Assembly: GCA_963797565.1 (NCBI GenBank)
Contig: CAWCPM010000002.1
Span: 321,560 to 385,559 of the forward strand
Direction of reading: 5' to 3'
Length of the DNA: 64,000 nt
DNA from: an uncultured Actinomycetes bacterium
GTDB taxonomy: Bacteria; Actinomycetota; Thermoleophilia; Gaiellales; JAICJC01
Part shown: piece after piece, positions 31,290 through 43,300 of the stretch
How positions within the stretch are numbered: the first letter of the stretch is position 1
Layout: every line of letters begins with the position of its first letter
The notes under the pieces: model-generated
Seen by the model: only the letters and a program-made list of their open reading frames with translations
Databases searched by the model: none
Told to the model about the DNA's origin: nothing
Program-made: the position numbers and the translations under genes

Positions 31290-33134
31290 GTGAGCCCGCA
31301 CACACACAAGCTCCGCGATGACATCCGAAACATCGCGATCATCGCCCACGTTGACCATGGCAAGACCACCCTCGTGGACGCGCTGCTGCAGCAGTCAGGC
31401 ACGTTCGCGGCGCACGCCGAGGTGGTCGACCGGATCATGGACGCCGGGCTCGAGCGCGAGCGCGGCATCACGATCCTGGCCAAGAACGCGGCCTGCCGCT
31501 ACCACGGCACCAAGATCAACATCATCGACACTCCCGGGCATGCCGACTTCGGCGGCGAGGTCGAGCGCGGCCTGACGATGGTTGACGGGGTGCTGCTGCT
31601 GGTCGACGCCAGCGAGGGGCCGCTGCCGCAGACCCGGTTCGTGCTGCGCAAGGCGCTGGCCGCGCGGCTGCCGGTGATCCTGGTCGTGAACAAGGTCGAC
31701 CGGCCCGATGCCCGCGCCGCCGAGGTGGTGAACGAGATCTACCAGCTGTTCTTCGATCTCGACGCCGACGAGTCGCAGATCGATTTCCCGATCGTCTACA
31801 CGATCGCCCGCGACGGCCTGGCCTCACTCACGGAAGACGATCAGGGTACCGACATGCATCCGCTGTTCGAGTTGATCCTCGACCGGGTGCCGCCGCCGCG
31901 CTACCACGAGGGCTCCCCGTTCCAGGCCCGCGTTGCCAACCTCGACTCCTCCCCCTACCTGGGCCGGCTCGCGCTCTGCCGCGTGCACGAGGGCGAGCTC
32001 AACAAGGGCGAGATGGTGGCGTGGTGCAAGGCCGACGGCACGATCACGCGCACCAAGATCACCGAGATGTTCGTTGCTGAGGGGCTCGATCGGGTGGCGG
32101 CCGATCACGTCGGGCCGGGCGAGGTGATGGCCGTCGCCGGCCTCCAGGAGATCATGATCGGCGAGACGATCGCCGACGCCGAGGACCCCCATCCGCTGCC
32201 GGTGATCAAGGTGGACGAGCCGTCGCTGGCGATGACGCTTGGCACCAACTCCTCGCCGTTCGCAGGCCGCAGCGGCTCGAAGCTGACGGCGCGCATGATC
32301 AAGGACCGGCTCGACCGCGAGCTGGTCGGGAACGTCAGCCTGCGGGTGTTCGACACCGACCGGCCGGACACGTGGGAGGTGCAGGGTCGCGGCGAGCTGC
32401 AGCTGGCGGTGCTGATCGAGCTGATGCGGCGCGAGGGCTTCGAACTCACGATCGGCAAGCCGCAGGTGGTCACGCGCGAGGTGAACGGCAAGGTCTGCGA
32501 GCCGGTGGAGCGGGTCACGATCGACGTGCCGGAGGAGTACTCGGGCACGGTGATCCAGGCGCTGGCGGTGCGTAAGGGGCGGATGGAGCAGATGACCAAC
32601 CACGGGTCGGGATGGGTGCGGCTGGACTATGTGATCCCGGCCCGCGGCCTGCTCGGGTTCCGTACCGAGTTTCTGACCGAGACGCGCGGCACCGGCATCC
32701 TGCACCACGTGTTCGATCGCTACGAGCCCTGGCACGGCGAGATCAGCGGCCGCCAGAACGGCTCGCTGATCGCTGACCGCGTCGGGCCGGCGTCGAGCTA
32801 CGCGATGACCAACCTGCAGGAGCGCGGAGTGCTGTTCGTGTCCCCCAGTGAGGACTGCTACGAGGGCATGCTGGTCGGCGAGAACGCCCGCGCGGACGAC
32901 CTCGACGTGAACATCGCCAAGGCCAAGCAGATGACCAACGTCCGTTCCAACGCCGATGTGCTGGTGCGCCTGGCGCCGCCACGCCTGCTCAGCCTCGACC
33001 AGGCGCTCGAGTACATCGAGGAGGACGAGTGCGTCGAGGTCACGCCCGACGTGATCCGCCTGCGCAAGGTCGAGCTGTCGGCGTCGAGGCGTCAGAGCCA
33101 GCGGTCGAAGAGCAAGCGCGACGCGCGTGAGTGA
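31290..33134 (+). CDS. typA: translational GTPase TypA/BipA
   Basis: ..IRNIAIIAHVDHGKTTLVD.., ..DTPGHADFGGEVER.., ..NKVDR... Full-length similarity to BipA. GTG start. Confidence 0.9.
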   Translation: MSPHTHKLRDDIRNIAIIAHVDHGKTTLVDALLQQSGTFAAHAEVVDRIMDAGLERERGITILAKNAACRYHGTKINIIDTPGHADFGGEVERGLTMVDGVLLLVDASEGPLPQTRFVLRKALAARLPVILVVNKVDRPDARAAEVVNEIYQLFFDLDADESQIDFPIVYTIARDGLASLTEDDQGTDMHPLFELILDRVPPPRYHEGSPFQARVANLDSSPYLGRLALCRVHEGELNKGEMVAWCKADGTITRTKITEMFVAEGLDRVAADHVGPGEVMAVAGLQEIMIGETIADAEDPHPLPVIKVDEPSLAMTLGTNSSPFAGRSGSKLTARMIKDRLDRELVGNVSLRVFDTDRPDTWEVQGRGELQLAVLIELMRREGFELTIGKPQVVTREVNGKVCEPVERVTIDVPEEYSGTVIQALAVRKGRMEQMTNHGSGWVRLDYVIPARGLLGFRTEFLTETRGTGILHHVFDRYEPWHGEISGRQNGSLIADRVGPASSYAMTNLQERGVLFVSPSEDCYEGMLVGENARADDLDVNIAKAKQMTNVRSNADVLVRLAPPRLLSLDQALEYIEEDECVEVTPDVIRLRKVELSASRRQSQRSKSKRDARE

Positions 33135-33186
33135 CCATGCGAACCGATAACGCTCAACCGTCGTACAACAATTACCGACGGAATAG

Positions 33187-33215
33187 TTGCGTTTGCCCGA
33201 AACGTTCTGTATGTT
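33187..33215 (+). promoter_or_regulatory. candidate sigma-70-type promoter TTGCGT-17-TATGTT
   Basis: The -35/-10-like hexamers have 17-nt spacing and sit in the AT-rich stretch after typA, 10 nt before a small ORF (ATG 33226). Confidence 0.35.
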
Positions 33216-33225
33216 GGGAGTCGCA

Positions 33226-33333
33226 ATGACGAAATTGTCTGACATCGAAATGTTCGCCGCCCGATCGACCTCCGTCGATCCGGTGACACATGGCCGGCTG
33301 GATAGCCAGCCCGGCACGGAGGCCCTCGCCTAG
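33226..33333 (+). CDS. possible 35-aa small ORF (MTKLSDIEMFAARSTSVDPVTHGRLDSQPGTEALA)
   Basis: Below the ORF-track cutoff. GGGAG lies 5 nt upstream of the ATG. Followed by hairpin repeat R1. No homology judgement is possible. Confidence 0.25.
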   Translation: MTKLSDIEMFAARSTSVDPVTHGRLDSQPGTEALA

Positions 33334-33371
33334 GACCTGGATTCGAGCAACAGCTCACCACAGGACCACGC

Positions 33372-33397
33372 GAGGGCGACTCACACGAGTCGCCCTC
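33372..33397 (+). repeat. hairpin repeat R1 (gagggcgact-cacacg-agtcgccctc)
   Basis: 10-bp perfect stem. Shares the core GAGGGCGA..TCGCCCTCA(R)TCGTT with R2. Confidence 0.6.
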
Positions 33398-33643
33398 AGT
33401 CGTTAACAACACATCACGCGCGATCCGAACGAAGGACACGAACACCACCATGACCGCGACAACCTTGAACACCGCCATGCTGACCGGCGCCTGGGCGAAA
33501 CACCTCGCCCCTGCGACGCCGCCGCATGCCTGTGATCGGGGTGTCGAAGCCTCTGATACCAGCGTGCAGCCCCGCGCGGACACCCTCATCTCAAGGAGCG
33601 TGCAGACCTAGAAACGGGTCAACGACACGCAATCCGGCGAGAT

Positions 33644-33669
33644 GAGGGCGATCCCAAGGGGTCGCCCTC
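33644..33669 (+). repeat. hairpin repeat R2 (gagggcga-tcccaagggg-tcgccctc)
   Basis: 8-bp outer stem with the same arms as R1. Followed by aatcgttta (R1 is followed by agtcgttaa). Confidence 0.6.
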
Positions 33670-33742
33670 AATCGTTTAAGCCCTCCCAGGTCGGGAGCAT
33701 CAGCAGAGAGGCTCGAATCCTCTCAAGGGCAATCCGGGAAAA

Positions 33743-33856
33743 CCCTGGCGCTGCTGGGGAGGACTCGCACAGTGCCGCAAGGCGTGCGGGGGCCGGCCCT
33801 CCACGAGGAGGAGTCCGGTTGGGAACTCGGGGACCTGACGAGAGAAAACGCCAGGG
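33743..33856 (+). ncRNA. candidate structured RNA of unknown class
   Basis: Nested helices seen by eye: ccctggcg(33743-50)/cgccaggg(33849-56); ggactc(33761-66)/gagtcc(33811-16), which encloses gcc-GCAA-ggc (a GNRA tetraloop hairpin) and cctcc-acga-ggagg. Confidence 0.3.
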
Positions 33857-33916
33857 GACCGATACCGACGGCTGAGAGGGAACTGGAGCTGATGTGCACG
33901 TGGTGAAGTTATTCGC

Positions 33917-33989
33917 GGCGCCGTGACCGAGTGGCTCAGGTAGCAGGTTGCAACCCTGCTCTAGGACGGTTCGATTCCGTCCGGCGCCT
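33917..33989 (+). tRNA. tRNA-Cys(GCA)
   Basis: Acceptor ggcgccg/cggcgcc, anticodon stem gcagg/cctgc with loop ttGCAac, T arm gacgg-ttcgatt-ccgtc. No encoded CCA. Confidence 0.85.
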
Positions 33990-34031
33990 CTCCGGATCCG
34001 CGGGATAGTTGATAGGTAACACCGATACCGT

Positions 34032-34104
34032 GGGGTGGTAGCTGAGACGGTCCAAGCGCCCGGTTGAAGCCCGGGAGACGAGGATTCGAGCGCCTCTCAC
34101 CCCA
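34032..34104 (+). tRNA. tRNA-Phe(GAA), atypical T stem
   Basis: Acceptor ggggtgg/tcacccc, anticodon stem cccgg/ccggg with loop ttGAAgc. T arm gagga-ttcgagc-gcctc has an A-G mismatch at the normally G53-C61 pair. Confidence 0.65.
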
Positions 34105-34119
34105 CCTTTTGACACCTTT

Positions 34120-34191
34120 GGGGGTGTGGCTCAGTGGCAGAGCATCCGCTTGTCGAGCGGTAGGTCGCGAGTTCGATTCTCGCCATCCCCG
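34120..34191 (+). tRNA. tRNA-Asp(GTC)
   Basis: Acceptor gggggtg/catcccc, D stem gctc/gagc, loop ttGTCga, T arm gcgag-ttcgatt-ctcgc. Confidence 0.8.
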
Positions 34192-34216
34192 TGCAGTAAC
34201 GGACGTTTCACCACAC

Positions 34217-34299
34217 ACCGGCATGGCGGAATGGGTAGACGCGCTGGTCTCAGAAACCAGTGGAGATTCTCCGTGGGGGTTCGACTCCCTCTGCCGGTA
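34217..34299 (+). tRNA. tRNA-Leu(CAG), type II
   Basis: Acceptor accggca/tgccggt (A1-U72), D region gcggaatgggtagacgc, anticodon stem ctggt/accag with loop ctCAGaa, long variable arm ggagattctcc, T arm ggggg-ttcgact-ccctc. Confidence 0.85.
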
Positions 34300-34312
34300 C
34301 TCGCTGAGCTTC

Positions 34313-34388
34313 GGGGGATGGGACTGCTGGGAGTGGTCACTCGGTTTGCACCCGGGACTACAGGCGGGTTCGATGCCCGCATCCTCCA
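34313..34388 (+). tRNA. tRNA-Ala(TGC), atypical variable region
   Basis: Acceptor gggggat/atcctcc, anticodon stem ctcgg/ccggg with loop ttTGCac, T arm gcggg-ttcgatg-cccgc. The 7-nt variable region and a one-nt 8-9 connector are unusual. Confidence 0.65.
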
Positions 34389-34408
34389 CTCGCACGTGCA
34401 CGACACTT

Positions 34409-34482
34409 GCCCTCGTAGCTCAATGGACCAGAGTGCCAGGCTTCGAACCTGGTGGTTGGAGGTTCGAATCCTCCCGAGGGCT
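34409..34482 (+). tRNA. tRNA-Arg(TCG)
   Basis: Acceptor gccctcg/cgagggc, D arm tagctcaatggaccagagt, anticodon stem ccagg/cctgg with loop ctTCGaa, T arm ggagg-ttcgaat-cctcc. Confidence 0.88.
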
Positions 34483-34489
34483 TCGCGAT

Positions 34490-34573
34490 GGGGATGCACT
34501 GGGAATGCGGCGATCCCAAGTGGCTGTAAACCACCCGCCTCCGGCTCTGGCAGTTCGACTCTGTCCGTCCCCA
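34490..34573 (+). tRNA. tRNA-Tyr(GTA), type II
   Basis: Acceptor ggggatg/cgtcccc, loop ctGTAaa, variable arm gcc-tcc-ggc, T arm ggcag-ttcgact-ctgtc. Confidence 0.8.
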
Positions 34574-34583
34574 CTCATCAAAT

Positions 34584-34656
34584 GCCTCTGTAGTTCACTG
34601 GACAGAACGCGAGCGTGCGAAGCTCGAGGCCGGAGGTTCGATTCCTCCCAGAGGCG
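34584..34656 (+). tRNA. tRNA-Arg(GCG)
   Basis: Acceptor gcctctg/cagaggc, anticodon stem cgagc/gctcg with loop gtGCGaa, T arm ggagg-ttcgatt-cctcc. G34 rather than the usual bacterial A34. Confidence 0.8.
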
Positions 34657-34666
34657 TGCACCCCAC

Positions 34667-34738
34667 GGCGAGTGGGGTCTGGCGATCCGGCAGCTCTCAT
34701 ACGGCTGCGCCAAGCCGGTTCGATTCCGGCGCTCGCTA
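34667..34738 (+). tRNA. tRNA-Met(CAT)-like, atypical D arm
   Basis: Acceptor ggcgagt/gctcgct (G1-U72 and U7-G66 wobbles), anticodon stem cagct/ggctg with loop ctCATac, T arm gccgg-ttcgatt-ccggc. The D arm folds as 5 bp plus a 4-nt loop. Initiator, elongator or Ile2 identity cannot be decided. Confidence 0.55.
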
Positions 34739-34743
34739 TCCAT

Positions 34744-34818
34744 GGTGGCCGTAGCTCAAAACGGTAGAGCCCCTGGTTGTGGACCAGGCGGTTGCCGGTT
34801 CGAACCCGGCCGGTCACC
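34744..34818 (+). tRNA. tRNA-His(GTG) with encoded G-1
   Basis: G-1 at 34744 opposite C73. Acceptor gtggccg/cggtcac, D stem gctc/gagc, loop ttGTGga, T arm gccgg-ttcgaac-ccggc. Confidence 0.88.
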
Positions 34819-34831
34819 CCTCCTGACACCC

Positions 34832-34903
34832 AGGGGCGTGATGTAAAGGCCAGCATGCGAGGCTCCAACCCTCGTCGTCCGGGTTCGACCCCTGGCGCCC
34901 CTG
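34832..34903 (+). tRNA. tRNA-Trp(CCA)
   Basis: Acceptor aggggcg/cgcccct (A1-U72), anticodon stem cgagg/cctcg with loop ctCCAac, T arm ccggg-ttcgacc-cctgg. The only member followed by CCA (34904-34906). Confidence 0.8.
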
Positions 34904-34923
34904 CCAAGCGCTGCACCACCCCA

Positions 34924-35017
34924 GTCGCGGGCCGACGCACGTCGGTTCTCGTGGACCCACTCACAATGGGGCCGGGTTCGATCCCCGGCATTCCGGCATG
35001 CACCTCATGACCGCGAC
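34924..35017 (+). ncRNA. tRNA-derived RNA 1 (Y-RNA-like paralog; not a functional tRNA fold)
   Basis: Has a 5' acceptor-like strand gggccga, D arm cacg-tcggttct-cgtg, a hairpin with loop ctcacaa and T arm ccggg-ttcgatc-cccgg. It has no variable region and no 3' acceptor strand. The ends gtcgcgg/ccgcgac pair 7/7, and the flanks are shared with element 2. Confidence 0.5.
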
Positions 35018-35036
35018 GCTGACGACGCAAACGCCC

Positions 35037-35170
35037 GACGCGGGCCGACGCGCACTGGTTACCACTGTGAATGGTCCAGGTAGCAGGTTCGACTCCTGCC
35101 CGGCCGGAGCGATCCGGCCAGTAGCTCAACGGTAGAGCGGGAACTCCAGTCCGCACCACATGACCGCGTC
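35037..35170 (+). ncRNA. YrlA-type Y RNA candidate (circularly permuted tRNA-like RNA)
   Basis: Order along the strand: ggtcc, 5-nt aggta, T arm gcagg-ttcgact-cctgc (35083-99), ccggccg, loop gagcgatc, cggccag (a closed acceptor-like helix), ta, D arm gctc-aacggta-gagc (35124-38), g, ggaac. The terminal stem gacgcgg/ccgcgtc pairs 7/7. It ends 36 nt before the rsr ATG. Confidence 0.7.
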
Positions 35171-35206
35171 ATTCCATCCACTCGATCTCCCGAAAGGAGG
35201 CCACCC

Positions 35207-36871
35207 ATGTCGTATCTGACCCGACTCCACAACCTCGCGACCACACAGCGCGAGCGCCTGCGCACCGACCAGGTGCCGAACTCCGAGGGCGGCTACGTCT
35301 GGGAGGTCGACATCTGGACGCGGCTGCGCCGGTTCCTGATCCTCGGCTCCGAGGCCGGCTCGTTCTACGCGTCGGAGCGGAAGCTGACGATCGCAAACAC
35401 ACGAGCGCTCGATGCCTGCATCGAACAGGACGGCGCCCGCACCGTCGAGCTGATCGCCGAGATCAGCGAGGCCGGCCGGGCACCGAAGAACGACCCGGCC
35501 GTGTACGCGCTGGCACGATGCGCGTCGGCGGCCGACGTCGTCACACGCCGGGCGGCGCTGGCAGCCCTGCCGCGAGTGTGCCGAACCGGCACCCACCTGT
35601 TCCAGTTCGCGACCATCGTGAACGAGCAGCGCGGATGGGGCCGGGCGCTGCGGCGCGCGGTGGGAGCGTGGTACGCAGCACGGGACGCGGACGCGATCGC
35701 CTACCAGGCGGTCAAGTACCGCCAGCGGGAGGGGTTCACCCACCGCGACGTGCTGCGGCTCGCGCACCCGGCGCGGCTGGTCTCGGCCGGCAACCCGACG
35801 CTGGACATCTCGACCGAGCAGGCTCGCCTGTTCGAGTGGATCGTCCGGGGCGGGGACACCGACGGGCTGCCGCGCATCGTCGAGGGCTACACCCGCGCAC
35901 AGCGGGCCGGATCGGCCGATGAGGCCGCCCGGCTGGTGCGTGAGTACCAGCTGCCGCGGGAGGCGCTGCCGTCGGAGCACCTGACCAGCTCCGCGGTTTG
36001 GGAGGCGCTGCTCGAGACGATGCCGATGACGGCGATGATCCGGAACCTGGCGACGATGACGCGCGTGGGCCTGCTCACGCCGGGATCGCCGTCGGTGCGG
36101 CTGATCACCGAGCGGCTGTCGGATGGCGCGCGGATCCGCAAGGCCCGCGTCCACCCGATCGCGCTGCTGGTGGCGGCGCGCACCTACGCCTCCGGGCGGG
36201 GTGTCCGCGGCCACGCCTCCTGGACGCCGGTAACCGCCATCGTCGACGCGCTCGACGAGGCCTTCTACCTCGCGTTCGGGAACGTCCAGCCGACCGGCAA
36301 GCGGCTGCTGCTCGCGCTCGACGTGTCGGGGTCGATGACCTTCGGCTCGATTGCGGGCATGCCGGGGCTCACGCCCCGGGACGCATCGGCAGCGATGGCG
36401 CTGGTCACGCTGGCCGTCGAGCGACACGTCGAGGTGGTCGGCTTCCACGCCGGCCGCGGCGGCTGGGTCGCTCGTCGTCGGGGACGGTTCCAGGGGCGCG
36501 CCGACGCCCTCACGCCGCTCCCGCTGTCGGCTCGGCAGCGCCTGGACGACGCGGTCCGCCGCGTGTCCGACCTGCCGTTCGGCGGCACCGACTGTGCCCT
36601 GCCGATGCGCTACGCGCTGGAGCAGGGACGGGCGGTCGACACGTTCGTGATCTACACCGACTCGGAGACCTGGGCTGGGGACATGCACCCGGCCGAGGCG
36701 CTGCGCCGCTACCGCCAGAGCACCGGCATCGCGGCACGGCTGGTCGTGGTCGGAATGGTCGCGAACCGCTTCACCATCGCCGACCCGAACGACGCCGGCA
36801 TGCTCGACGTCGTCGGGTTCGACACCTCGACACCGCAGGTGATCGGCGGGTTCGCCCGTGGCGAGCTGTAA
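35207..36871 (+). CDS. rsr: Ro60-related protein Rsr (TROVE + vWA domains)
   Basis: ..QVPNSEGGYVWEVDIWTRLRRFLILGSEAGSFYASERKLT..ISEAGRAPKNDPAVYALA.. closely follows the Rsr/Ro60 N-terminus as I remember it. The C-terminal vWA domain has a MIDAS motif, LLLALDVSGSM. SD GGAGG is upstream. Confidence 0.85.
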   Translation: MSYLTRLHNLATTQRERLRTDQVPNSEGGYVWEVDIWTRLRRFLILGSEAGSFYASERKLTIANTRALDACIEQDGARTVELIAEISEAGRAPKNDPAVYALARCASAADVVTRRAALAALPRVCRTGTHLFQFATIVNEQRGWGRALRRAVGAWYAARDADAIAYQAVKYRQREGFTHRDVLRLAHPARLVSAGNPTLDISTEQARLFEWIVRGGDTDGLPRIVEGYTRAQRAGSADEAARLVREYQLPREALPSEHLTSSAVWEALLETMPMTAMIRNLATMTRVGLLTPGSPSVRLITERLSDGARIRKARVHPIALLVAARTYASGRGVRGHASWTPVTAIVDALDEAFYLAFGNVQPTGKRLLLALDVSGSMTFGSIAGMPGLTPRDASAAMALVTLAVERHVEVVGFHAGRGGWVARRRGRFQGRADALTPLPLSARQRLDDAVRRVSDLPFGGTDCALPMRYALEQGRAVDTFVIYTDSETWAGDMHPAEALRRYRQSTGIAARLVVVGMVANRFTIADPNDAGMLDVVGFDTSTPQVIGGFARGEL

Positions 36872-36876
36872 CACGG

Positions 36877-36911
36877 CCCGGGCAGGGAGCGTTCGTGACT
36901 CCCTGCCCGGG
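36877..36911 (+). terminator. 13-bp perfect hairpin after rsr (cccgggcagggag-N9-ctccctgcccggg)
   Basis: Starts 6 nt after the rsr stop. No U-tract follows, so it could be a terminator, an attenuator or a processing/stability element. Confidence 0.5.
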
Positions 36912-36933
36912 GGCGGTCGAACGGCACGCACCT

Positions 36934-37006
36934 GGACGCATAGCTCAGCAGGTAGAGCGCTCGCCCGACATGCGAGAGGTGCCAGGTTCGACCCCTGGTG
37001 CGTCCA
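36934..37006 (+). tRNA. tRNA-Val(GAC) with C33
   Basis: Acceptor ggacgca/tgcgtcc, D arm tagctcagcaggtagagc, anticodon stem ctcgc/gcgag with loop ccGACat (C rather than U at position 33), T arm ccagg-ttcgacc-cctgg. Confidence 0.7.
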
Positions 37007-37008
37007 TT

Positions 37009-37082
37009 GCCCGCGTAGCTCAGAGGATGAGAGCGCTCCGCTCCTACCGGAGAAGCCGCACGTTCGAGTCGTGCCGCGGGCG
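37009..37082 (+). tRNA. tRNA-Arg(CCT)
   Basis: Acceptor gcccgcg/cgcgggc, anticodon stem ctccg/cggag with loop ctCCTac, T arm gcacg-ttcgagt-cgtgc. Only 2 nt after tRNA-Val. Confidence 0.88.
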
Positions 37083-37085
37083 CCT

Positions 37086-37158
37086 GGGGTCATAGCTCAA
37101 CTGGCAGAGCGCCCGGCTCTTAACCGGGAGGTTGGGGGATCGTTGCCCTCTGACCCCA
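37086..37158 (+). tRNA. tRNA-Lys(CTT), non-canonical T loop
   Basis: Acceptor ggggtca/tgacccc, D arm tagctcaactggcagagc, anticodon stem cccgg/ccggg with loop ctCTTaa. T arm ggggg-atcgttg-ccctc, where A and U replace the usual T54 and A58. Confidence 0.7.
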
Positions 37159-37178
37159 TCTGCGGGTCTGCACATCGT

Positions 37179-37262
37179 GGAAGCGATCCGGCTGGATCAG
37201 GAGCCTGTCTCGAAAACAGGTAGGAGGGTCACCTCTTGGGCGTTCGAGTCGCCCCGCTTCCG
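37179..37262 (+). tRNA. tRNA-Ser(CGA), type II
   Basis: Acceptor ggaagcg/cgcttcc, anticodon stem cctgt/acagg with loop ctCGAaa, long variable arm aggagggtcacctctt, T arm gggcg-ttcgagt-cgccc. Confidence 0.85.
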
Positions 37263-37321
37263 CTCGCCTTCGCGGTCTTCGACGGCATCCGGCCGACGCG
37301 GTGGCCCGGTAGAGTCGCGCG

Positions 37322-37909
37322 ATGGCAGACTTTGAGTGCGCAGTCGTTGCCGAGTCTGAGCGAGATCGGGCGACTCGCGTCCTGGTGTCGGCGTTCGAGG
37401 ATGACCCTGTTGAGCGCTGGCTCTATCCGGATGACGCCGTCTATCGAGACCATTTTCCGGCGTTCATCGCGGCGTTCGGCGGTGACGCGTTCCACGATCA
37501 GACCGTCTGGCGGCTGGGGGATTTCGACGCGGTGGCGTTCTGGTTTGCGCCGGGGCGCGAGCCAGATGGCGCCGCGGTGGTACGAGTACTGGTGGAGACG
37601 ACTGCCGAACATCTGCACGCTGATTCGTTCGCGACGTTGGAGCAGATGGCCGAGGGGCATCCCGCAGGCCAGCACTGGTACCTGCCGTGGTTTGGAGTGC
37701 AGCGCACCCTCCAGGGACGGGGACTCGGCACGCATCTCATGCGCCACTGCCTGGAGATCGTGGACGCGAGTGGCTTCCCGGCGTACCTGGAGACGCCGAA
37801 CCCGCGAACCGTGCCGTTCTACGAGCGCGCCGGATTCACGGTCACCGGGACTGCTCAGGCGGGAGCCTGCCCTCCGATCACCATGATGCAGCGGGCCCCG
37901 CGCAGATAG
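37322..37909 (+). CDS. GNAT family N-acetyltransferase
   Basis: Acetyl-CoA motif ..VQRTLQGRGLGTHLM.. and C-terminal ..YLETPNPRTVPFYERAGF... Confidence 0.8.
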   Translation: MADFECAVVAESERDRATRVLVSAFEDDPVERWLYPDDAVYRDHFPAFIAAFGGDAFHDQTVWRLGDFDAVAFWFAPGREPDGAAVVRVLVETTAEHLHADSFATLEQMAEGHPAGQHWYLPWFGVQRTLQGRGLGTHLMRHCLEIVDASGFPAYLETPNPRTVPFYERAGFTVTGTAQAGACPPITMMQRAPRR

Positions 37910-37954
37910 CGCGACTGCACGCGCGAGGCGCCCTTGACGACGGTGCCGGGAACG

Positions 37955-38042
37955 GGATGGGTGGCAGAGTGGGAATGCAGCGCCCTGCTACGGCGTAGGC
38001 CGGCCGCGAGCCGGTCCGCGGGTTCGATCCCCGCCCCATCCG
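37955..38042 (+). tRNA. tRNA-Ser(GCT), type II
   Basis: Acceptor ggatggg/cccatcc, anticodon stem gcgcc/ggcgt with loop ctGCTac, long variable arm ggccggccgcgagccggtc, T arm gcggg-ttcgatc-cccgc. Confidence 0.85.
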
Positions 38043-38056
38043 TCGACGCATGACTT

Positions 38057-38128
38057 TCCGGAGTGGCCGAGTGGACAGGCGCACGGTTGTTACCCGTGAC
38101 CACGTGGGTTCGATCCCTACCTCCGGAG
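38057..38128 (+). tRNA. tRNA-Asn(GTT)
   Basis: Acceptor tccggag/ctccgga (U1-A72), anticodon stem cacgg/ccgtg with loop ttGTTac, T arm gtggg-ttcgatc-cctac. Confidence 0.8.
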
Positions 38129-38139
38129 CTGGCTCAAAA

Positions 38140-38215
38140 GGGGGGCAGGTGTCCGTGGTCTTCGGCACGCTCGTCTGATACGCGAGAGGGCTTGGTTCGA
38201 CTCCAGGGTCCCCCA
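38140..38215 (+). tRNA. tRNA-Ile(GAT)
   Basis: Acceptor ggggggc/gtccccc, large 12-nt D loop, anticodon stem ctcgt/gcgag with loop ctGATac, T arm cttgg-ttcgact-ccagg. Confidence 0.78.
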
Positions 38216-38220
38216 CTCGA

Positions 38221-38291
38221 TGCGAGGTCGTCTAACGGCAGGACGCCTGGCTCTGACCCAGGTAATCGGGGTTCGAAACCCTGCCTCGCAG
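38221..38291 (+). tRNA. tRNA-Gln(CTG)
   Basis: Acceptor tgcgagg/cctcgca (U1-A72, as in bacterial tRNA-Gln), anticodon stem cctgg/ccagg with loop ctCTGac, T arm cgggg-ttcgaaa-ccctg. Confidence 0.82.
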
Positions 38292-38298
38292 CCATCAC

Positions 38299-38370
38299 GG
38301 CACCATCGGCTAACGGATAGGCCGCCGGGTTCTCAGTCCGGAGATCGGAGTTCGAATCTCCGTGGTGCTA
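38299..38370 (+). tRNA. tRNA-Glu(CTC)
   Basis: Acceptor ggcacca/tggtgct (G1-U72), anticodon stem ccggg/tccgg with loop ttCTCag, T arm cggag-ttcgaat-ctccg. Confidence 0.8.
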
Positions 38371-38377
38371 TCACCCT

Positions 38378-38450
38378 CGGGATGTGGCGCAGTTGGCAGC
38401 GCGCGCGGTTCGGGACCGCGAGGCCGCACGTTCGAATCGTGCCATCCCGA
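38378..38450 (+). tRNA. tRNA-Pro(CGG)
   Basis: Acceptor cgggatg/catcccg (C1-G72, typical of bacterial tRNA-Pro), D stem gcgc/gcgc, anticodon stem cgcgg/ccgcg with loop ttCGGga, T arm gcacg-ttcgaat-cgtgc. Confidence 0.88.
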
Positions 38451-38477
38451 CTCTAAAGAGTCGAAATCCCTAGACCC

Positions 38478-38549
38478 GCCTCCGATGTGTTTCTGGCAGC
38501 ACGCTCGGTTTGTACCCGAGAAGATACGGTTCGACTCCGTACGGAGGCT
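38478..38549 (+). tRNA. tRNA-Thr(TGT)
   Basis: Acceptor gcctccg/cggaggc, anticodon stem ctcgg/ccgag with loop ttTGTac, T arm tacgg-ttcgact-ccgta. Confidence 0.85.
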
Positions 38550-38551
38550 CT

Positions 38552-38884
38552 GGTGTCATCCGGAGGGCATCCCATCGCGGGCCGCGGCAGCGCGGCTCGA
38601 GGAAGGTCCGGACTCGCATGCGCGGGCGACCGCGCATCAAACCGCCCCGGGCGAATACCCCGGGCGACGCGCAGGTGGCGCTGCGCGGACGTGCCTGGCA
38701 ACAGCGACGATGACCGCCCCGGCCGCTCTGGCCGCGGATGCCGCGGGTGAAACGGGCTACAGGCAGCGGGCGAGCAACCCCAAGCGTCCGGTCTCACGAA
38801 GACCGGCAGGTCGGGGGCATAGATGGATGATGGGACGCGCCTCGGCGCCGACAGAATCCGGCCTATCGCCCCCCGGCTGACACC
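38552..38884 (+). ncRNA. rnpB: RNase P RNA, bacterial type A
   Basis: P1 ggtgtcatccggaggg / ccccccggctgacacc. Conserved blocks: cGAGGAAgGTCCGGaCtC (P4 5' strand), atCAAACCGCC, GGGTGAAACGGG, GGCAACAG, GAGCAACCCCAA, TAGATGGATGA, ACAGAATCCGGCCTATCG. About 333 nt. Confidence 0.85.
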
Positions 38885-38894
38885 GCATCACCGA

Positions 38895-38966
38895 GCGACC
38901 GTGGTCAAACGGCAACGACTCCTGGCCTCCAACCAGGCGATACGGGTTCGATCCCCGTCGGTCGCT
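38895..38966 (+). tRNA. tRNA-Gly(TCC) with C33
   Basis: Acceptor gcgaccg/cggtcgc, anticodon stem cctgg/ccagg with loop ccTCCaa (C at position 33), T arm acggg-ttcgatc-cccgt. Confidence 0.7.
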
Positions 38967-39030
38967 CCTCGTTCTCGATCGGTACCGGCGCGACCGCCGT
39001 CGCGATAGGCTGGTTCGGGGTGATCGTGCG

Positions 39031-40266
39031 ATGGAGGACCTTCCCAGCGGAACCGTCACACTCCTCTTCACCGACGTCGAAGGGTCGACGTTGCTCGTCC
39101 AGGCGCTGGGTGCCGCCTACCAGTACGCGCTGGACGGGCACCGCCAGATCCTGAGGGACGCGGTCGCGTCGCACGCGGGCCGCGAGGTGGATTGCCGCGC
39201 CGACGAGTTCCTGGCCTGCTTCCCACGCGCATCCGACGGCCTGGCGGCGGCGATCGCCGCGCAGCTGGCGCTGACGTCGGAGGATTCCCAGCTGCGGGTG
39301 CGGATGGGACTTCACACCGGTGAGCCGGAGCTGATCGGCAACGCGTACATCGGGATCGATGTCAACCGGGCATCGCGAATCTGCGCGGCCGGCCACGGCG
39401 GGCAGATCCTGGTGTCCCAGACCACCCGCGATCTGGCGTCGACAGCCGTCCAGTTCCGCGATCTCGGCACCTACCTGCTCGCCGGCGTCGAGCAGGCCGA
39501 GCGGATCTTCGAGGTGCGCGCCCCCGGTCTGCGCACCTCGTCGCTGCCGCTCCGGGCCGAGCACGACACGGGTACCCCGGTCCGCCGCCGGCGTGGCCTG
39601 CGGCCGCGGCGCGCGCCGGCCTCGTCGCAGCTCGCCGAGACCGCCTGGCGGGCACGGAAGCTGGTCGAGCCGGGGCCGCTCCGTGACGCGCTCACGGGGC
39701 TTGCGGCGGCGCTGTTCGACGCCGACCGCGCCGTCCACCGAGCCGAAGCGCTGCTGGGGAAGATCGACCGCCACCGCATCGCCCGCAGGTTGGCCGAGCA
39801 GCGCGAGCTGTCGCTCGTGTCTCCCCCGGTGGCCGAGCTTGCCGCCGGGACAGACGCGAAGCTGGCCTGCCTCGACCGTCTCGGCGATGACGCCCAGGTC
39901 GTATCCGACCTGGGCGCCGAGGCTGCCGCGCTGCTCGATCGGTCATTCAGCGCCCACGCGGTCGAGCAGATCTGTGAACGGCTGAACCTGGCGATAGGCA
40001 CCCTGGACGGGCAGATCACGGTCACCGCCCGCGCGCACGACGCGCTCAGCTACCGGTTGGCGCGCACCCGCTGGCGCGGCGTGTACCGGCTGGACGCGCT
40101 CTACGTCGTCCCCTACCACGACGAGCTGGGGATCGAGCGCCAGCCCGAGTTCACGGACGCCGGTGAGGCCCGCCGCTTCCGCGAAGGCGTCAAGCTGGCC
40201 CGCCAGGCCAGGAATCGAGGACTCGGCTTCGACCTTCCATGGGATGGATCATCGGGTGGGTCCTGA
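39031..40266 (+). CDS. class III adenylate/guanylate cyclase-domain protein with uncharacterised C-terminal half
   Basis: N-terminal ..GTVTLLFTDVEGSTLLVQ..DEFLACF..RVRMGLHTGEP..GIDVNRASRICAAGHGGQILVS.. is a CYTH-unrelated class III cyclase fold. Residues from about 190 to 411 are helical and Arg/Ala-rich with no motif recognised. Confidence 0.65.
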   Translation: MEDLPSGTVTLLFTDVEGSTLLVQALGAAYQYALDGHRQILRDAVASHAGREVDCRADEFLACFPRASDGLAAAIAAQLALTSEDSQLRVRMGLHTGEPELIGNAYIGIDVNRASRICAAGHGGQILVSQTTRDLASTAVQFRDLGTYLLAGVEQAERIFEVRAPGLRTSSLPLRAEHDTGTPVRRRRGLRPRRAPASSQLAETAWRARKLVEPGPLRDALTGLAAALFDADRAVHRAEALLGKIDRHRIARRLAEQRELSLVSPPVAELAAGTDAKLACLDRLGDDAQVVSDLGAEAAALLDRSFSAHAVEQICERLNLAIGTLDGQITVTARAHDALSYRLARTRWRGVYRLDALYVVPYHDELGIERQPEFTDAGEARRFREGVKLARQARNRGLGFDLPWDGSSGGS

Positions 40267-40295
40267 CTCAAACGGGTCGCCGGCCGCCCGTGCTC

Positions 40296-40369
40296 GCGCG
40301 AGTAGCTCAGCCAGGTAGAGCACCTGCGCCACATGCAGGGTGCCGGCGGTTCGAACCCGTCCTCGCGCA
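40296..40369 (+). tRNA. tRNA-Val(CAC) with C33
   Basis: Acceptor gcgcgag/ctcgcgc, D arm tagctcagccaggtagagc, anticodon stem cctgc/gcagg with loop gcCACat (C at position 33), T arm ggcgg-ttcgaac-ccgtc. Abuts the protease gene stop. Confidence 0.7.
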
Positions 40370-43300
40370 TTACGACAGGGAGACGGTTGCGCTGCCCGTG
40401 TAGTCGTTGTACGGGTCGAGCACGATCGTGTAGGTGCCGGCCACCGGCGCCGTCAGCCCGAACGAGGTCGAGCCCAGCACCCACGACGGCGACAGCAGCG
40501 CCGTGCCGTCCGGACGCAGCACCGAGACGCGCATGATCGGGACGCTGACCGCGCTCAGGTTCAGCATCAGCGACTGCCCGGCCGTGGCAGTGAACGTGAC
40601 CGCCCCACCCTGGCCGGGAGCATTCATCGCAGCCGTGAACCCAGGCCCGCCCTGCGTGATCGACCCGGCCGCATCCGGCGGCACGTCGTAGACGGTCACC
40701 GACAACGGTCCTGTTGAGGCGTCGAACGGATCCACGGCGATGGTGTAGGTGCCGGACACCGGCAGCGTGGTCACGTCGATGAAGGTGTTACCCGGCGCCA
40801 TGGTCGCGAGCAGGATCGTGGCGTCCGGCTTGCTGACGGTGAACCGCACCGACATCGCCGTCGTGAGGCGGAAGCTGACCCGCTCGCCGGCCACGCCGTT
40901 GAAGCTGACGAGCCCGTTCTGGCCGGGCACCGTGATCGGGATCGAGGCCGCGGCGCCGCCGGGCGTGGTCGTCGCAGACGCGTCGGCCGGGACGCTGAAG
41001 GCGGTCAGCGTCATCGTCACCGCCGAGCCGCCCGACGGGTCGATCACGATCGTGTAGGTGCCGGTGGCCGGCAGCGTGTGGGTGTCGAGGAAACCGCCCG
41101 ACGAGGAGACGTAGAAGGTCGCGAAGATGGAGCCGTCCGGCGCGCGCACATCGAGCCGCGTCTGCGGCAGCGCGCTGCCGGTGACCGTCATGCTCATCCG
41201 CGTGCCGGCCACCCCGGCGAACGTGATGCCGGCGTTCTGTCCGGCGCCCAGCGAGATCGTGAGCGGCGCTCCGCCCACGGTGATGCTGCCGGTGAGATCG
41301 ACCGGCACACCCAGCACCTGGACGGTGGCGCTGCCCACCGCCGCCCCCTGCGGATCGATGCGGATCGTGTAGGTGCCGCTGGCCGGAAGCGCGATCGCGT
41401 CGATGAAGCCGCCCGAGCCGTAGGCGATGGTGGAGCCCGCAGGTGACACCAGCGTCACCGACGTGGCGGCCATGCCGGAGGTGCTGTAGCTGACGCTGAC
41501 CGACTGGCCGGCCGCGCCCGGGAACGTGACCGAGGCGTTCTGGCCGGGCACCGTGGTGGTGAGCGTGACCGGTGCTGCTGCCACCGAGGTGGTCGCCGTC
41601 GGATCGGGCGGCACGTCGTACAGCGTGTAGCTGACGCTGCCGGTGCCGACGTCCTGGGGGTCGGCCACCACCGTGTAGGTGCCGGTCTGCTTGAGCGTGG
41701 CCGCGTCCACGAACGAGGTGCCGGCGCCGGTGTAGCCCGGCCCCGCGAGCACCGTGCCGTCCGGGTTCAGGATCGACGTCTTCAGCAGGTAGAAGGTGGA
41801 GCTGACACCGAGGCTGACGCGCCGGCCGGCCACGCCGCTGAACGTGAACAGCGCGTTCTGGCCCGCCGCCGTTGTGGTGGCCGACGCGGGAGCGCCGCCC
41901 GGCGTGATGGTGGTCGTGACGTCGGGCGGCACGTCGTAGAGCGTCAGCGTGACCGGCCCGGTGCGCTCGTCCTGTGGGTCGGCCAGGATCGTGTACGTGC
42001 CGTCGGAGGGCAGCTGCACGGTGTCGATGAAACCGTTGCCGGCGCTCGTGTAGAGCGGCCCCGCCAGCTGCGTCCCGCCCGGCCCGATGATGATCGTCTT
42101 CAGGAAGCTGATGCTGCTGGACGTGGCCAGCGCCACCCGCCGCCCGGCCGCGCCCGTGAAGCTGGCGACCGCGTTCTGGCCGGGCACGGTGGTGGTCAGC
42201 GTCACCGGAGGCCCGCCGGGGCTGATCGCCGCCGTCGCATCCGGCGGCACGTTGAAGAGCTGGATCGCCATGCTGCCGCCGCCCGCCTGCAGCGGGTGCA
42301 CGCGCACCACGTAGCTGCCGGACTGCTGCAGCGTGAACGAGTCGATGAACGCGCTGCCGGTGGACAGCGTCTTCGAGGCGGCCGTGGACCCGTCCGGGTT
42401 GCTGATGGTGACGGTGCTGCTGGTGATCGTCGACGCCGACAGCAGGGCGCTCACGCGCGTGCCGGCGGTGCCGTCGAAGGCGAGCAGCTGGTCCTCGCCG
42501 GCACCCGAGGTGACGGTGACCGGCGCTCCGCCGATCACGATCGGGCTCGGCGATACGCCGGTGACGCTGCCGCTGTCGGTGCCGCCGCTGCTGGTGGCCG
42601 TGGCGGTAACGGTGGTGCTGCCCGGGGCGGGCGTGAACTGGCCGGTGTAGCTGCCGTCGCCCTGGGCCGTCAGCGCGACCGGCTGGCCGTTGGCGGCCGC
42701 GGTGACGGTCACGCCCGCGAGGTCGCCGCAGACGCCGGCCAGCAGGCGCACGGTCACCGGGTGGCCGGCGGCGGCCACGAAGCCCTGGCCGGGAGCGTCG
42801 ATCACCAGCTGCGGCTTGTTGCTGCAGGTGAGCGCGTTTCCGGCGTCGAGACGGCCCTGGCTGGCGCTGGTGCCGGCGAGTGCCGCGGGGCGGTCGACCG
42901 TGCGCAGCAGCAGCGCCTTGATGGTGTCGGCGGTGGCGGCCGGATGCGCGGCCAGCACCAGCGCGGCCGCACCGGCCACGTGAGGCGAGGCCATCGAGGT
43001 GCCGCTCTCGGACTTGTAGGCCTTGCCCGGCCAGGTCGAGTAGATGCTGACGCCGGGCGCCGCCAGATCGACGCTGCTCTGCCCGTAGTTCGAGAAGTAG
43101 GCGAGATGGTCGGTCGAGTCGCTGGCACCCACCGAGATGATGTTGGGCAGATCGAAGTCGGCCGGGTAGGTGGGCGTCGTATCGCTGTTCGTGCCGTCGT
43201 TGCCTGCAGCGGCAACGAACAGGTCGCCGTGCGCGTTCGCGTCGGCGATGGCGTCATACAGGGCCTGCGAGTACTCGGTGTCGCCCCAGGAGTTGTTCGT

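Follow-up and report, generated by a model that had tools for sequence, protein, structure and literature searches.

A probable YrlA-type Y RNA gene directly upstream of rsr in a tRNA array of an uncultured Gaiellales-like actinobacterium

Here we analysed a stretch of 64,000 nt (64 kb) of DNA from an uncultured Actinomycetes bacterium (GenBank assembly GCA_963797565.1, contig CAWCPM010000002.1, positions 321,560 to 385,559; hereafter the window), and we are confident that an element at positions 35037-35170 of its + strand, hereafter e2, encodes a YrlA-type bacterial Y RNA, the non-coding partner of the Ro60 orthologue Rsr encoded 36 nt downstream. e2 is a full-length, high-scoring member of a group of RNAs composed of a T arm, a closed acceptor hairpin and a D arm, which lie beside Ro genes across many phyla. 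The pattern of e2 lies far outside what chance would produce, covariation supports the helices, and nearly all elbow and core nucleotides of a transfer RNA (tRNA) are retained. By homology, the encoded RNA is further predicted to bind Rsr and to be processed and to function as its relatives do. YrlA has been defined as an RNA encoded beside Ro60 that combines a GNCGAAN0-1G motif near its 5' end and a stem made by pairing of both ends with a T arm, an acceptor-like stem-loop and a D arm (Chen et al. 2014, PMC4201824). In agreement with this definition, e2 lies on the same strand as and within ~4 kb of a Ro60/Rsr gene, its T stem-loop stands 5' of its D stem-loop with the closed acceptor-like stem-loop and a UA connector between them, its 5' and 3' ends form a long stem, and it does not overlap tandem tRNAs, which were filtered out by Chen et al.

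The gene downstream of e2 is rsr (35207..36871, + strand), coding for a protein of 554 aa with a TROVE domain (Pfam, E 7e-46) and a vWA_Ro60 domain (E 2e-60), which is similar to Rsr of Deinococcus radiodurans (PDB 2NVO, E 4e-128) and to Xenopus Ro60 (1YVP, E 4e-122). The end of e2 and the rsr ATG (35207) are separated by 36 nt on the same strand, and the ribosome-binding site (RBS) of rsr, GAAAGGAGG (35192-35200, + strand), begins 21 nt beyond e2. The nearest relative of this Rsr is encoded on contig L034 (L-numbers denote sampled loci) of a Gaiellales metagenome-assembled genome (MAG), with 98% identity across the 289 residues that L034 covers, and further relatives are found in the Actinomycetes MAGs L030 and L093 (~75%) and in Solirubrobacter deserti (L104, 65%).

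e2, the ends of which were placed by its terminal helix, consists of an outer stem module, predicted to bind Rsr, and an inner tRNA-like module, all coordinates being on the + strand. The 5' strand of the stem module (35037..35063) aligns with the family consensus GnCGGGCCGAAG....UGGGUUAUC and comprises the P1 strand GACGCGG (35037-43), pairing 7/7 with CCGCGUC (35164-70), the motif GCCGACG (35044-50) with one mismatch to GNCGAAN0-1G, the P2 strand GCG-C-ACUGG (35050-58), which pairs with CCAGU-C-CGC (35146-54) to give the 8-bp helix P2, and the conserved GGUUACC (35057-63). The 3' strand (35145..35170) follows the family consensus CCCA...C(U/A)UGnCCGnC and contains the internal loop ACCACAUGA, which includes a CAUG (35159-62) conserved in the family alignment. 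Together, the two strands make up the 7-bp P1, a conserved bulged helix and P2. The inner module begins with GGUCC (35073..35077, corresponding to tRNA positions 39-43), the equivalent of an anticodon-stem strand, which pairs at four of five positions with GGAAC (35140-44). It continues with a variable-like segment AGGTA (35078-82), the T arm GCAGG-UUCGACU-CCUGC (35083..35099), in which G53-C61, U54, U55, C56 and A58 are all there, and the closed acceptor-like hairpin (35100..35121), in which CCGGCCG (35100-06, tRNA 66-72) and CGGCCAG (35115-21, tRNA 1-7) form six Watson-Crick pairs and one A-C over seven positions around a loop of 8 nt (35107-14; GAGCGATC in the DNA, GAGCGAUC in the RNA). The UA connector (35122-23, U8 and A9), the D arm GCUC-AACGGUA-GAGC (35124-38) with A14, G18, G19 and A21, and a single G spacer (35139) before GGAAC complete the module. 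Taken over the whole element, the tRNA core and elbow nucleotides U8, A14, G18, G19, A21, G53-C61, U54-A58, U55 and C56 are all kept, and the D stem GCUC/GAGC as well as the pairs G52-C62 and G53-C61 are invariant columns of the family. An alternative to part of the anticodon-like stem is a hairpin, here called V (ACCA-CUGUGAA-UGGU, 35061..35075), which is present in the minimum free energy (MFE) fold.

An earlier note on this DNA, made from its sequence, had described the inner module as a circularly permuted tRNA located 36 nt upstream of rsr. Upon re-reading, all of its coordinates and pairings as well as the gap to the rsr ATG proved exact, the spacers have the lengths of those of a tRNA, and the domains and the 2NVO match reported above bear out the identity of the neighbouring gene. 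The permuted order it proposed stands, while the simple opening of the chain at the anticodon loop does not, as the anticodon-stem equivalent runs into the stem module of 26-27 nt per strand. The permuted-tRNA reading is not new, because YrlA has already been described in this way, and the view of YrlA as a tRNA mimic encoded beside rsr matches the published accounts (Chen et al. 2014; Wang et al. 2018).

The comparative evidence comes from a sample of loci encoding relatives of the window Rsr (29 viral contigs and 79 genome contigs), and is thus biased towards such relatives. Family elements were collected by a pattern of T arm, hairpin and D arm, and tandem-tRNA matches were removed with ARAGORN. 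This yielded 85 non-tRNA elements in 56 out of 109 sources, and the architecture of e2 adjoins Ro genes at more than 50 loci from several phyla. In a MAFFT alignment built from sequence only (47 elements in all), e2 aligns end to end with 45 elements of other Ro loci and with its orthologue on L034. The shared features follow one another in the same order, namely a 5' motif similar to CGGGCCGAAG, GGUUAUC, the V hairpin, GGUC with the T arm (GGUUCGA), a closed hairpin of variable sequence, UAGCUCA..GGUAGAGC, and a 3' CCCA...C(U/A)UGnCCG pairing back to the 5' end. From this alignment, RNAalifold independently predicted the T, acceptor-like and D helices together with the outer stem, with compensatory changes in 18 out of 24 pairs.

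For the proposed structure, which combines the helices of the earlier note with the stem module, 85.7% of the cells in the 47 elements are paired compared to 37-45% when the 3' partners are slid, a figure that includes the T, acceptor-like and D pairings for which the elements had been preselected; with this reservation, the helices of the permuted tRNA are conserved at homologous loci, which the earlier note had named as a check. The covariation score is 0.55 versus at most 0.17 for the slid versions, 0 out of 500 shuffles reach the observed values, and 30 out of 39 pairs show compensatory changes on both sides. Considering the helices separately, the outer helix is paired in 87.6% of cells with 7 out of 10 pairs compensatory, and in nine close relatives the stem module is paired in 88.9%, compared to 27-43% when slid. 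In the anticodon-like stem, the two pairs next to the core are paired in 90.6% with strong covariation, and the lower three, which are poorly aligned, in 55%. The T stem (99.1% paired, 4 out of 5 pairs compensatory) and the acceptor-like stem (94.8%, 7 out of 7) belong to the preselected pairings, and the D stem is nearly invariant across the family. At the L034 locus, which is 96% identical to e2, 6 of the 8 differences fall on unpaired positions and one changes a G-U into a G-C pair.

Additionally, a covariance model of 141 positions, R1, was built from 40 elements at other Ro genes, leaving out the window and L034. Searching the 64-kb window, R1 matched 35033-35175 at full length (all 141 positions) with 91.7 bits (E 4e-21), and the next-best matches were tandem tRNAs with 28.5 bits or less. 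Family members at other loci score ~85-115 bits with R1, which places e2 in the middle of the range. R1 also recovered elements in Mycobacterium phage Nappy (L109 1129-1283, 84 bits) and in Gordonia phage Cashline (L110 1189-1472, 99.8 and 76.9 bits), matches that tie the model to the published set of phage YrlA. The YrlA model of Rfam (RF02553) gave a local match at 35075-35143 (model positions 23-86; 35.4 bits, E 2.8e-6 in a search of 351 nt), in which the T arm, the acceptor-like hairpin and the D arm of e2 are covered and the stem module is unaligned. Together, the published layout, the end-to-end alignment with the family and the R1 score, obtained without training on e2, support the YrlA-type identity that the earlier note had proposed.

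Several observations weigh against this assignment. The Levitt pair 15-48 of e2 is A15 (35129)/A48 (35082), neither G15-C48 nor A15-U48, and the same is found in L034. We regard this as a minor deviation; most YrlA keep the Levitt pair, but not all (Wang et al. 2018, bioRxiv 10.1101/312249), and contig L112 (ENA ERZ25421756), a population variant from another metagenome that encodes an identical Rsr, has a U at the equivalent of 35082 and with it a canonical A15-U48, besides A35158G in the internal loop. The 5' motif of e2, GCCGACG, has a C in place of the second A of GNCGAAN0-1G, although its position matches that of the family consensus and the L034 orthologue carries an exact motif (GCCGAAG). 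Within the conserved helix, e2 shows a G-A, invariant in its clade, at a place occupied by G-U or G-C in most of the family. Folding of e2 as a single sequence did not recover the D arm and the inner stem (MFE -55.6 kcal/mol versus -40.8 kcal/mol for the proposed fold), and its folding z-score of -1.6 is no better than that of shuffled sequences, so that the D arm and the inner stem are supported comparatively and not thermodynamically. Moreover, the selection pattern itself required the T, acceptor-like and D pairings, leaving the outer stem, P2 and the anticodon-like stem as the unbiased tests of pairing. The closest sister clade, L030 and L093, with Ro proteins ~75% identical, has no D arm-containing Y RNA, indicating that the full tRNA-like module is not indispensable. 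Expression, ends and Rsr binding of e2 in the source organism are predictions.

One further point is the Rfam score. The earlier note had named the Rfam Y RNA and YrlA models as a check, and the core of e2 is indeed matched, but with 35.4 bits it falls below the RF02553 gathering score of 69, and at gathering thresholds Rfam found only tRNAs in the window. The same cut-off is missed by the YrlA of phage Nappy (36.1 bits) and by elements of L016, L110, L012 and L033 (30-43 bits), to which R1 assigns 84-115 bits. The Rfam YrlA cut-off thus appears too strict for lineages far from its seed alignment, and we attribute the sub-threshold score of e2 to the narrow seed of the model and do not count it as evidence against membership.

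The location of e2 inside a dense tRNA array raises the question of whether it is a functionless, decaying remnant or a chance juxtaposition, the T arm coming from one tRNA and the D arm from its downstream neighbour. Genuine tandem tRNAs do match the core of R1, false positives of this kind were warned of by Chen et al. (PMC4201824), and a dimeric-tRNA origin has been proposed for YrlA (bioRxiv 10.1101/312249). However, tRNA dimers reach at most 28.5 bits, compared to 91.7 bits for e2, neither ARAGORN nor Rfam called a tRNA within 34907-36932, the acceptor strands of e2 pair with one another into a closed hairpin, the putatively Rsr-binding stem formed by the flanks is conserved and shows family motifs and covariation, and the architecture recurs beside Ro genes at more than 50 loci from several phyla. 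The score gap and the conserved stem module together exclude a tRNA-dimer remnant, and we consider a functionless e2 highly improbable. Even less credible is a permuted tRNA gene like those of Cyanidioschyzon, the product of which would be matured to a decoding tRNA. Such a gene would share with e2 the order of 3' half, closed acceptor loop and 5' half, the exact tRNA spacers and the 7-bp acceptor, but not the ends, which continue for ~26 nt per strand into a helix with the Ro motif instead of closing in an anticodon stem-loop. Beyond the 5-bp stem GGUCC/GGAAC, the strands of e2 pass into the Ro-binding helix over a further 36 and 26 nt, so no anticodon loop can form at the junction, which excludes a permuted tRNA gene. 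In addition, the splicing endonuclease and circularisation pathway that such a gene would need are unreported in bacteria (Wang et al., bioRxiv 10.1101/312249), and the array already has tRNAs for all amino acids. No canonical tRNA was called at e2 by ARAGORN or by Rfam RF00005.

It is also conceivable that e2 serves primarily as a structured, cis-acting leader of the rsr mRNA, for instance as an autoregulatory site bound by Rsr, and is not released as a stable trans-acting RNA. In favour of this, only 36 nt separate the end of e2 from the rsr start codon and 21 nt from the RBS, and no promoter- or terminator-like site was found within 33000-41000, making co-transcription with rsr likely, even though a consensus scan of this kind is weak in an actinobacterium with 70% GC. 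Nevertheless, Y RNAs encoded upstream of rsr in Mycobacterium smegmatis and D. radiodurans are processed from precursors into stable Rsr-bound RNAs (PMC4201824), and at other loci family members are found at distances of hundreds of nt from rsr or on its downstream side. A predominantly cis-acting e2 is therefore unlikely in our view, and a YrlA-type Y RNA partnering Rsr is the explanation that we favour.

The V hairpin deserves separate mention. Its loop is usually 7 nt long and resembles an anticodon loop (YU-NNN-AA), reading CUGUGAA in e2 and CUCAUAA, CUGUUAA or CUUGUAA at other loci, and under the dimeric-tRNA origin model its position corresponds to the anticodon arm of the first tRNA. 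A CUCAUAA loop 5' of the T arm in Verrucomicrobia was considered as the anticodon arm of a tRNA-Met and rejected, since its context, following GGUUAUC, identifies it as the V hairpin of YrlA.

Regarding the mode of action of e2 as a Y RNA, a scheme can be proposed by analogy with the characterized systems of D. radiodurans, Salmonella Typhimurium and M. smegmatis. As a YrlA, it would be expected to be stable, to be bound by Rsr in vivo and to carry the tRNA modifications pseudouridine 55 and dihydrouridine. e2 would probably be part of a long tRNA-Y RNA-rsr transcript and would then be excised from it. The terminal helix, in which both ends of the RNA pair and which contains the bulged GGGCCGACG/CAUGACC segment, may dock on the outer surface of the Rsr ring, and the distal module may fold into a tRNA-like L, the elbow of which would be presented to an effector. 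As the effector-binding end, the distal module could tether Rsr to a partner such as PNPase and gate the Rsr cavity, and the Rsr/effector complex could act in the decay or repair of structured RNA. In Deinococcus and Salmonella, the effector is PNPase. Because the acceptor-like stem of e2 has the length of that of a tRNA, 7 bp, cleavage by RNase P is likely, and the hairpin would probably be opened between 35114 and 35115, as judged from YrlA of M. smegmatis, in which this stem likewise measures 7 bp and which is both cut by RNase P and provided with CCA (Chen et al. 2014, RNA 20:1715, PMC4201824). Following the same example, the 5' fragment of e2 would then be trimmed and CCA added.

A second Y RNA, e1 (34924..35017, + strand), is located 19 nt upstream of e2 and has the same stem module. 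Its predicted Rsr-binding stem comprises P1 (34924-30/35011-17) and P2 (34937-45/34993-35001) with the same GCCGACG motif (34931-37), while its effector part consists of a hairpin, CCCA-CUCACAA-UGGG (34956-70), and a T arm, GCCGGG-UUCGAUC-CCCGGC (34971-89), without an acceptor-like hairpin and without a D arm. The ends of e1, GUCGCGGGCCGACG...CAUGACCGCGAC, are almost the same as those of e2, and compensatory differences in P1 and P2 show that the stems of the two elements covary. R1 recognized only the stem module of e1 (28 bits), the 79-position tRNA-like core being replaced by 41 nt. The Rfam model Deinococcus_Y_RNA (RF01053) spans e1 from model position 1 to 126 with a weak score of 21.4 bits (E 0.15), missing its gathering score of 80, and we class e1 as a Y RNA because of its stem module match and not as a member of Yrn1. 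The L034 orthologue of e1 carries a compensatory change from G-C to A-U in the T stem, and single-sequence folding of the e1 region is unremarkable (z-score -0.25). With the same Rsr-binding stem and a different effector end, e1 probably provides the same Rsr with a second partner specificity.

In the sister clade (L030 2762-2966, L093 2764-2968), rsr is likewise preceded by two Y RNAs, neither of them with a D arm and neither a full YrlA; one combines a T arm with an acceptor-like hairpin, and the other consists of a hairpin only. The effector end thus changes rapidly, whereas the Rsr-binding stem is retained. The tRNA arrays of L030 and L093 are largely syntenic with that of the window, but their rsr cassette is located elsewhere, following tRNA-Pro and not tRNA-Trp. 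In a separate observation, the Rfam model for nematode stem-bulge RNAs (sbRNAs), RF01656, matched the stem modules of bacterial and phage Y RNAs (L033 2505-2627, L016 2778-2849 and L110 1340-1467), one of the RF01656 matches reaching its gathering score (38 bits) at a hairpin-type Y RNA adjoining a Ro gene. sbRNAs are homologues of Y RNAs.

The genomic context of e2 is that of a bacterial chromosome with a GC content of ~70%, the neighbours including TypA/BipA, CcmF, a PafBC-like regulator, a subtilase and amidohydrolases, and the source lineage is a poorly studied, uncultured Gaiellales-like actinobacterium. An actinophage origin, as suggested by the combination of 22 tRNAs and a Ro gene, was rejected in view of the chromosomal neighbours and the lack of a phage DNA match, the window showing no similarity to any deposited phage in a comparison with 50,697 phage records. 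The tRNA array around rsr comprises 22 genes called by ARAGORN on the same strand as rsr, or ~23 when an uncalled tRNA-Tyr-like copy is counted. Its upstream part (33917..34906, + strand) contains 10 tRNA genes (ARAGORN, Rfam tRNA) in addition to the tRNA-Tyr-like sequence, and its downstream part (36933..40369, + strand) 12 tRNA genes, broken by a GNAT gene and a cyclase-domain gene. In the tRNA-Tyr(GUA)-like sequence (~34487-34573, + strand), the acceptor stem measures 7 bp and the D region is unusually long; ARAGORN does not call this sequence, but does call the 96%-identical copy on L034, and once the window sequence is counted, the array covers all 20 amino acids. ARAGORN and Rfam found no tRNA between 34907 and 36932, and none on either strand at 34907-35206. 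Gaps along the tRNA-Y RNA-rsr stretch measure 17-62 nt. A consensus scan for sigma-70 promoters and intrinsic terminators over 33000-41000 returned no site, which at 70% GC is weak evidence and uninformative for the transcript ends.

The Rsr protein itself was found in identical form in several metagenome assemblies of ENA. On one contig, L114 (ENA ERZ23877683, 2175 bp), the identical 554-aa Rsr is preceded by unrelated DNA (1-152), which takes over ~28 nt ahead of the start codon and stands in place of the Y RNAs. This contig may be a chimera of short-read assembly or reflect a real rearrangement. By eye, its upstream DNA looks coding-like, and we take it to be possibly part of a glycosyltransferase gene.

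The association of rsr with tRNA genes extends beyond the window, as at least 5 tRNA genes are located within 3 kb of rsr at 40 out of the 109 Ro loci sampled, including L030, L031, L034, L052, L093 and L098. In a limited check of the literature on tRNA arrays, Ro and Y RNAs were unmentioned. Furthermore, the modal stem of the acceptor-like hairpins across the family is 7 bp, and 23 out of 78 distinct YrlA acceptor-like hairpins encode CCA exactly at tRNA positions 74-76, that is, after the 7-nt strand and the discriminator base, whereas the counts for CCA at five other offsets are 0 to 7. CUCCGGC-UCCAGAU-GCCGGGG is an example, and such hairpins occur at L033, L035, L044, L051-L053, L056, L058, L060, L061, L063, L065, L066, L068, L074, L078 and L101, mostly loci in which about half of the tRNA genes encode CCA. 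In the window, CCA is encoded in 1 out of 22 tRNA genes and is absent from the e2 hairpin. Two papers on YrlA (PMC4201824 and bioRxiv 10.1101/312249) do not mention an encoded CCA. The 40 out of 109 loci with tRNAs, the 7-bp mode and the 23 out of 78 positioned CCA hint at a wider reading, which we tentatively put forward as a rather doubtful possibility, namely that the rsr-Y RNA cassette is an integral, co-transcribed part of complete tRNA arrays in several phyla, and that 7-bp YrlA, including e2, do not work as closed permuted tRNAs and are instead two-piece, CCA-tailed tRNA mimics opened by RNase P and held together on Rsr. If true, a tRNA-surveillance or anti-defence module would travel with a back-up set of tRNAs. 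As a lead, the location of the cassette in a tRNA array and the positioned CCA of many related loops raise the question of whether opened, CCA-ended YrlA is a widespread functional form, and whether a functional tie exists between Rsr/Y RNA and tRNA arrays.

Overall, e2 adds one YrlA/Rsr pair from a poorly studied lineage to a family known from more than 250 species, which by itself matters little. The wider relevance lies in annotation, as the Rfam YrlA threshold misses both e2 and phage YrlA, so that annotation pipelines leave such genes unmarked. Moreover, e1 and e2, with one shared Rsr-binding stem and differing effector ends, together with the sister clade lacking D arms, illustrate a rapid modular turnover of effectors.

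Compared with known systems, e2 resembles YrlA of M. smegmatis, which likewise is actinobacterial, lies upstream of rsr, is accompanied by an RNA with a T arm only, and shows the order of T arm, acceptor-like stem and D arm with a 7-bp acceptor-like stem, the property that renders the M. smegmatis RNA a substrate of RNase P. The companion in M. smegmatis, YrlB, is the second Rsr-bound RNA and has a T arm (PMC4201824). Going by the published description, YrlB lies between YrlA and rsr, whereas the T arm-only e1 lies upstream of e2, and in contrast to M. smegmatis the locus in the window is placed inside a tRNA array. YrlA of Salmonella Typhimurium (RF02553), the tRNA-like domain of which has been solved (Wang et al. 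2018, bioRxiv 10.1101/312249; PDB 6CU1), shares the modular plan and the conserved elbow and core nucleotides with e2, but its acceptor-like stem of 6 bp, compared to 7 bp in e2, is uncleaved by RNase P, and its locus is the RtcR-controlled rsr-yrlBA-rtcBA operon, while no rtcB was seen in the window. In total, YrlA has been reported in 254 bacteria and 22 phages, among the latter mycobacteriophage ET08 (Chen et al. 2014, PMC4201824). The YrlA of the phages Nappy and Cashline occupy the same position as e2, upstream of a Ro-like gene whose product is 48-51% identical to the window Rsr; the deposited annotations of both phages contain no RNA feature upstream of this gene, and the Rfam threshold misses the elements. 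Nappy is a Bixzunavirus, and the first reports of YrlA in phages included mycobacteriophages that encode Ro.

The second element, e1, can be compared with Yrn1 of D. radiodurans (RF01053), with which it has a common layout of a terminal Rsr-binding stem, a small hairpin, a T arm and then CAU, and its T arm CCGGGUUCGAUCCCCGGCAU is identical at 19 out of 20 positions to the Rfam Yrn1 consensus CCGGGUUCGAUUCCCGGCAU, yet e1 is ~30 nt shorter than the 126-position Yrn1 model and lacks the other stem-loop of Yrn1. Beyond the Y RNAs, the permuted tRNA genes of Cyanidioschyzon merolae and other organisms and the two-piece transfer-messenger RNA (tmRNA) have, as e2 does, permuted tRNA-like parts and a closed acceptor loop, which in these RNAs has to be cut by RNase P or RNase Z before tRNA-like ends can arise. 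While permuted tRNAs and two-piece tmRNA mature to a decoding tRNA or a functional tmRNA, respectively, e2 has no anticodon loop at the junction and carries instead the stem by which it is predicted to bind its Ro protein.

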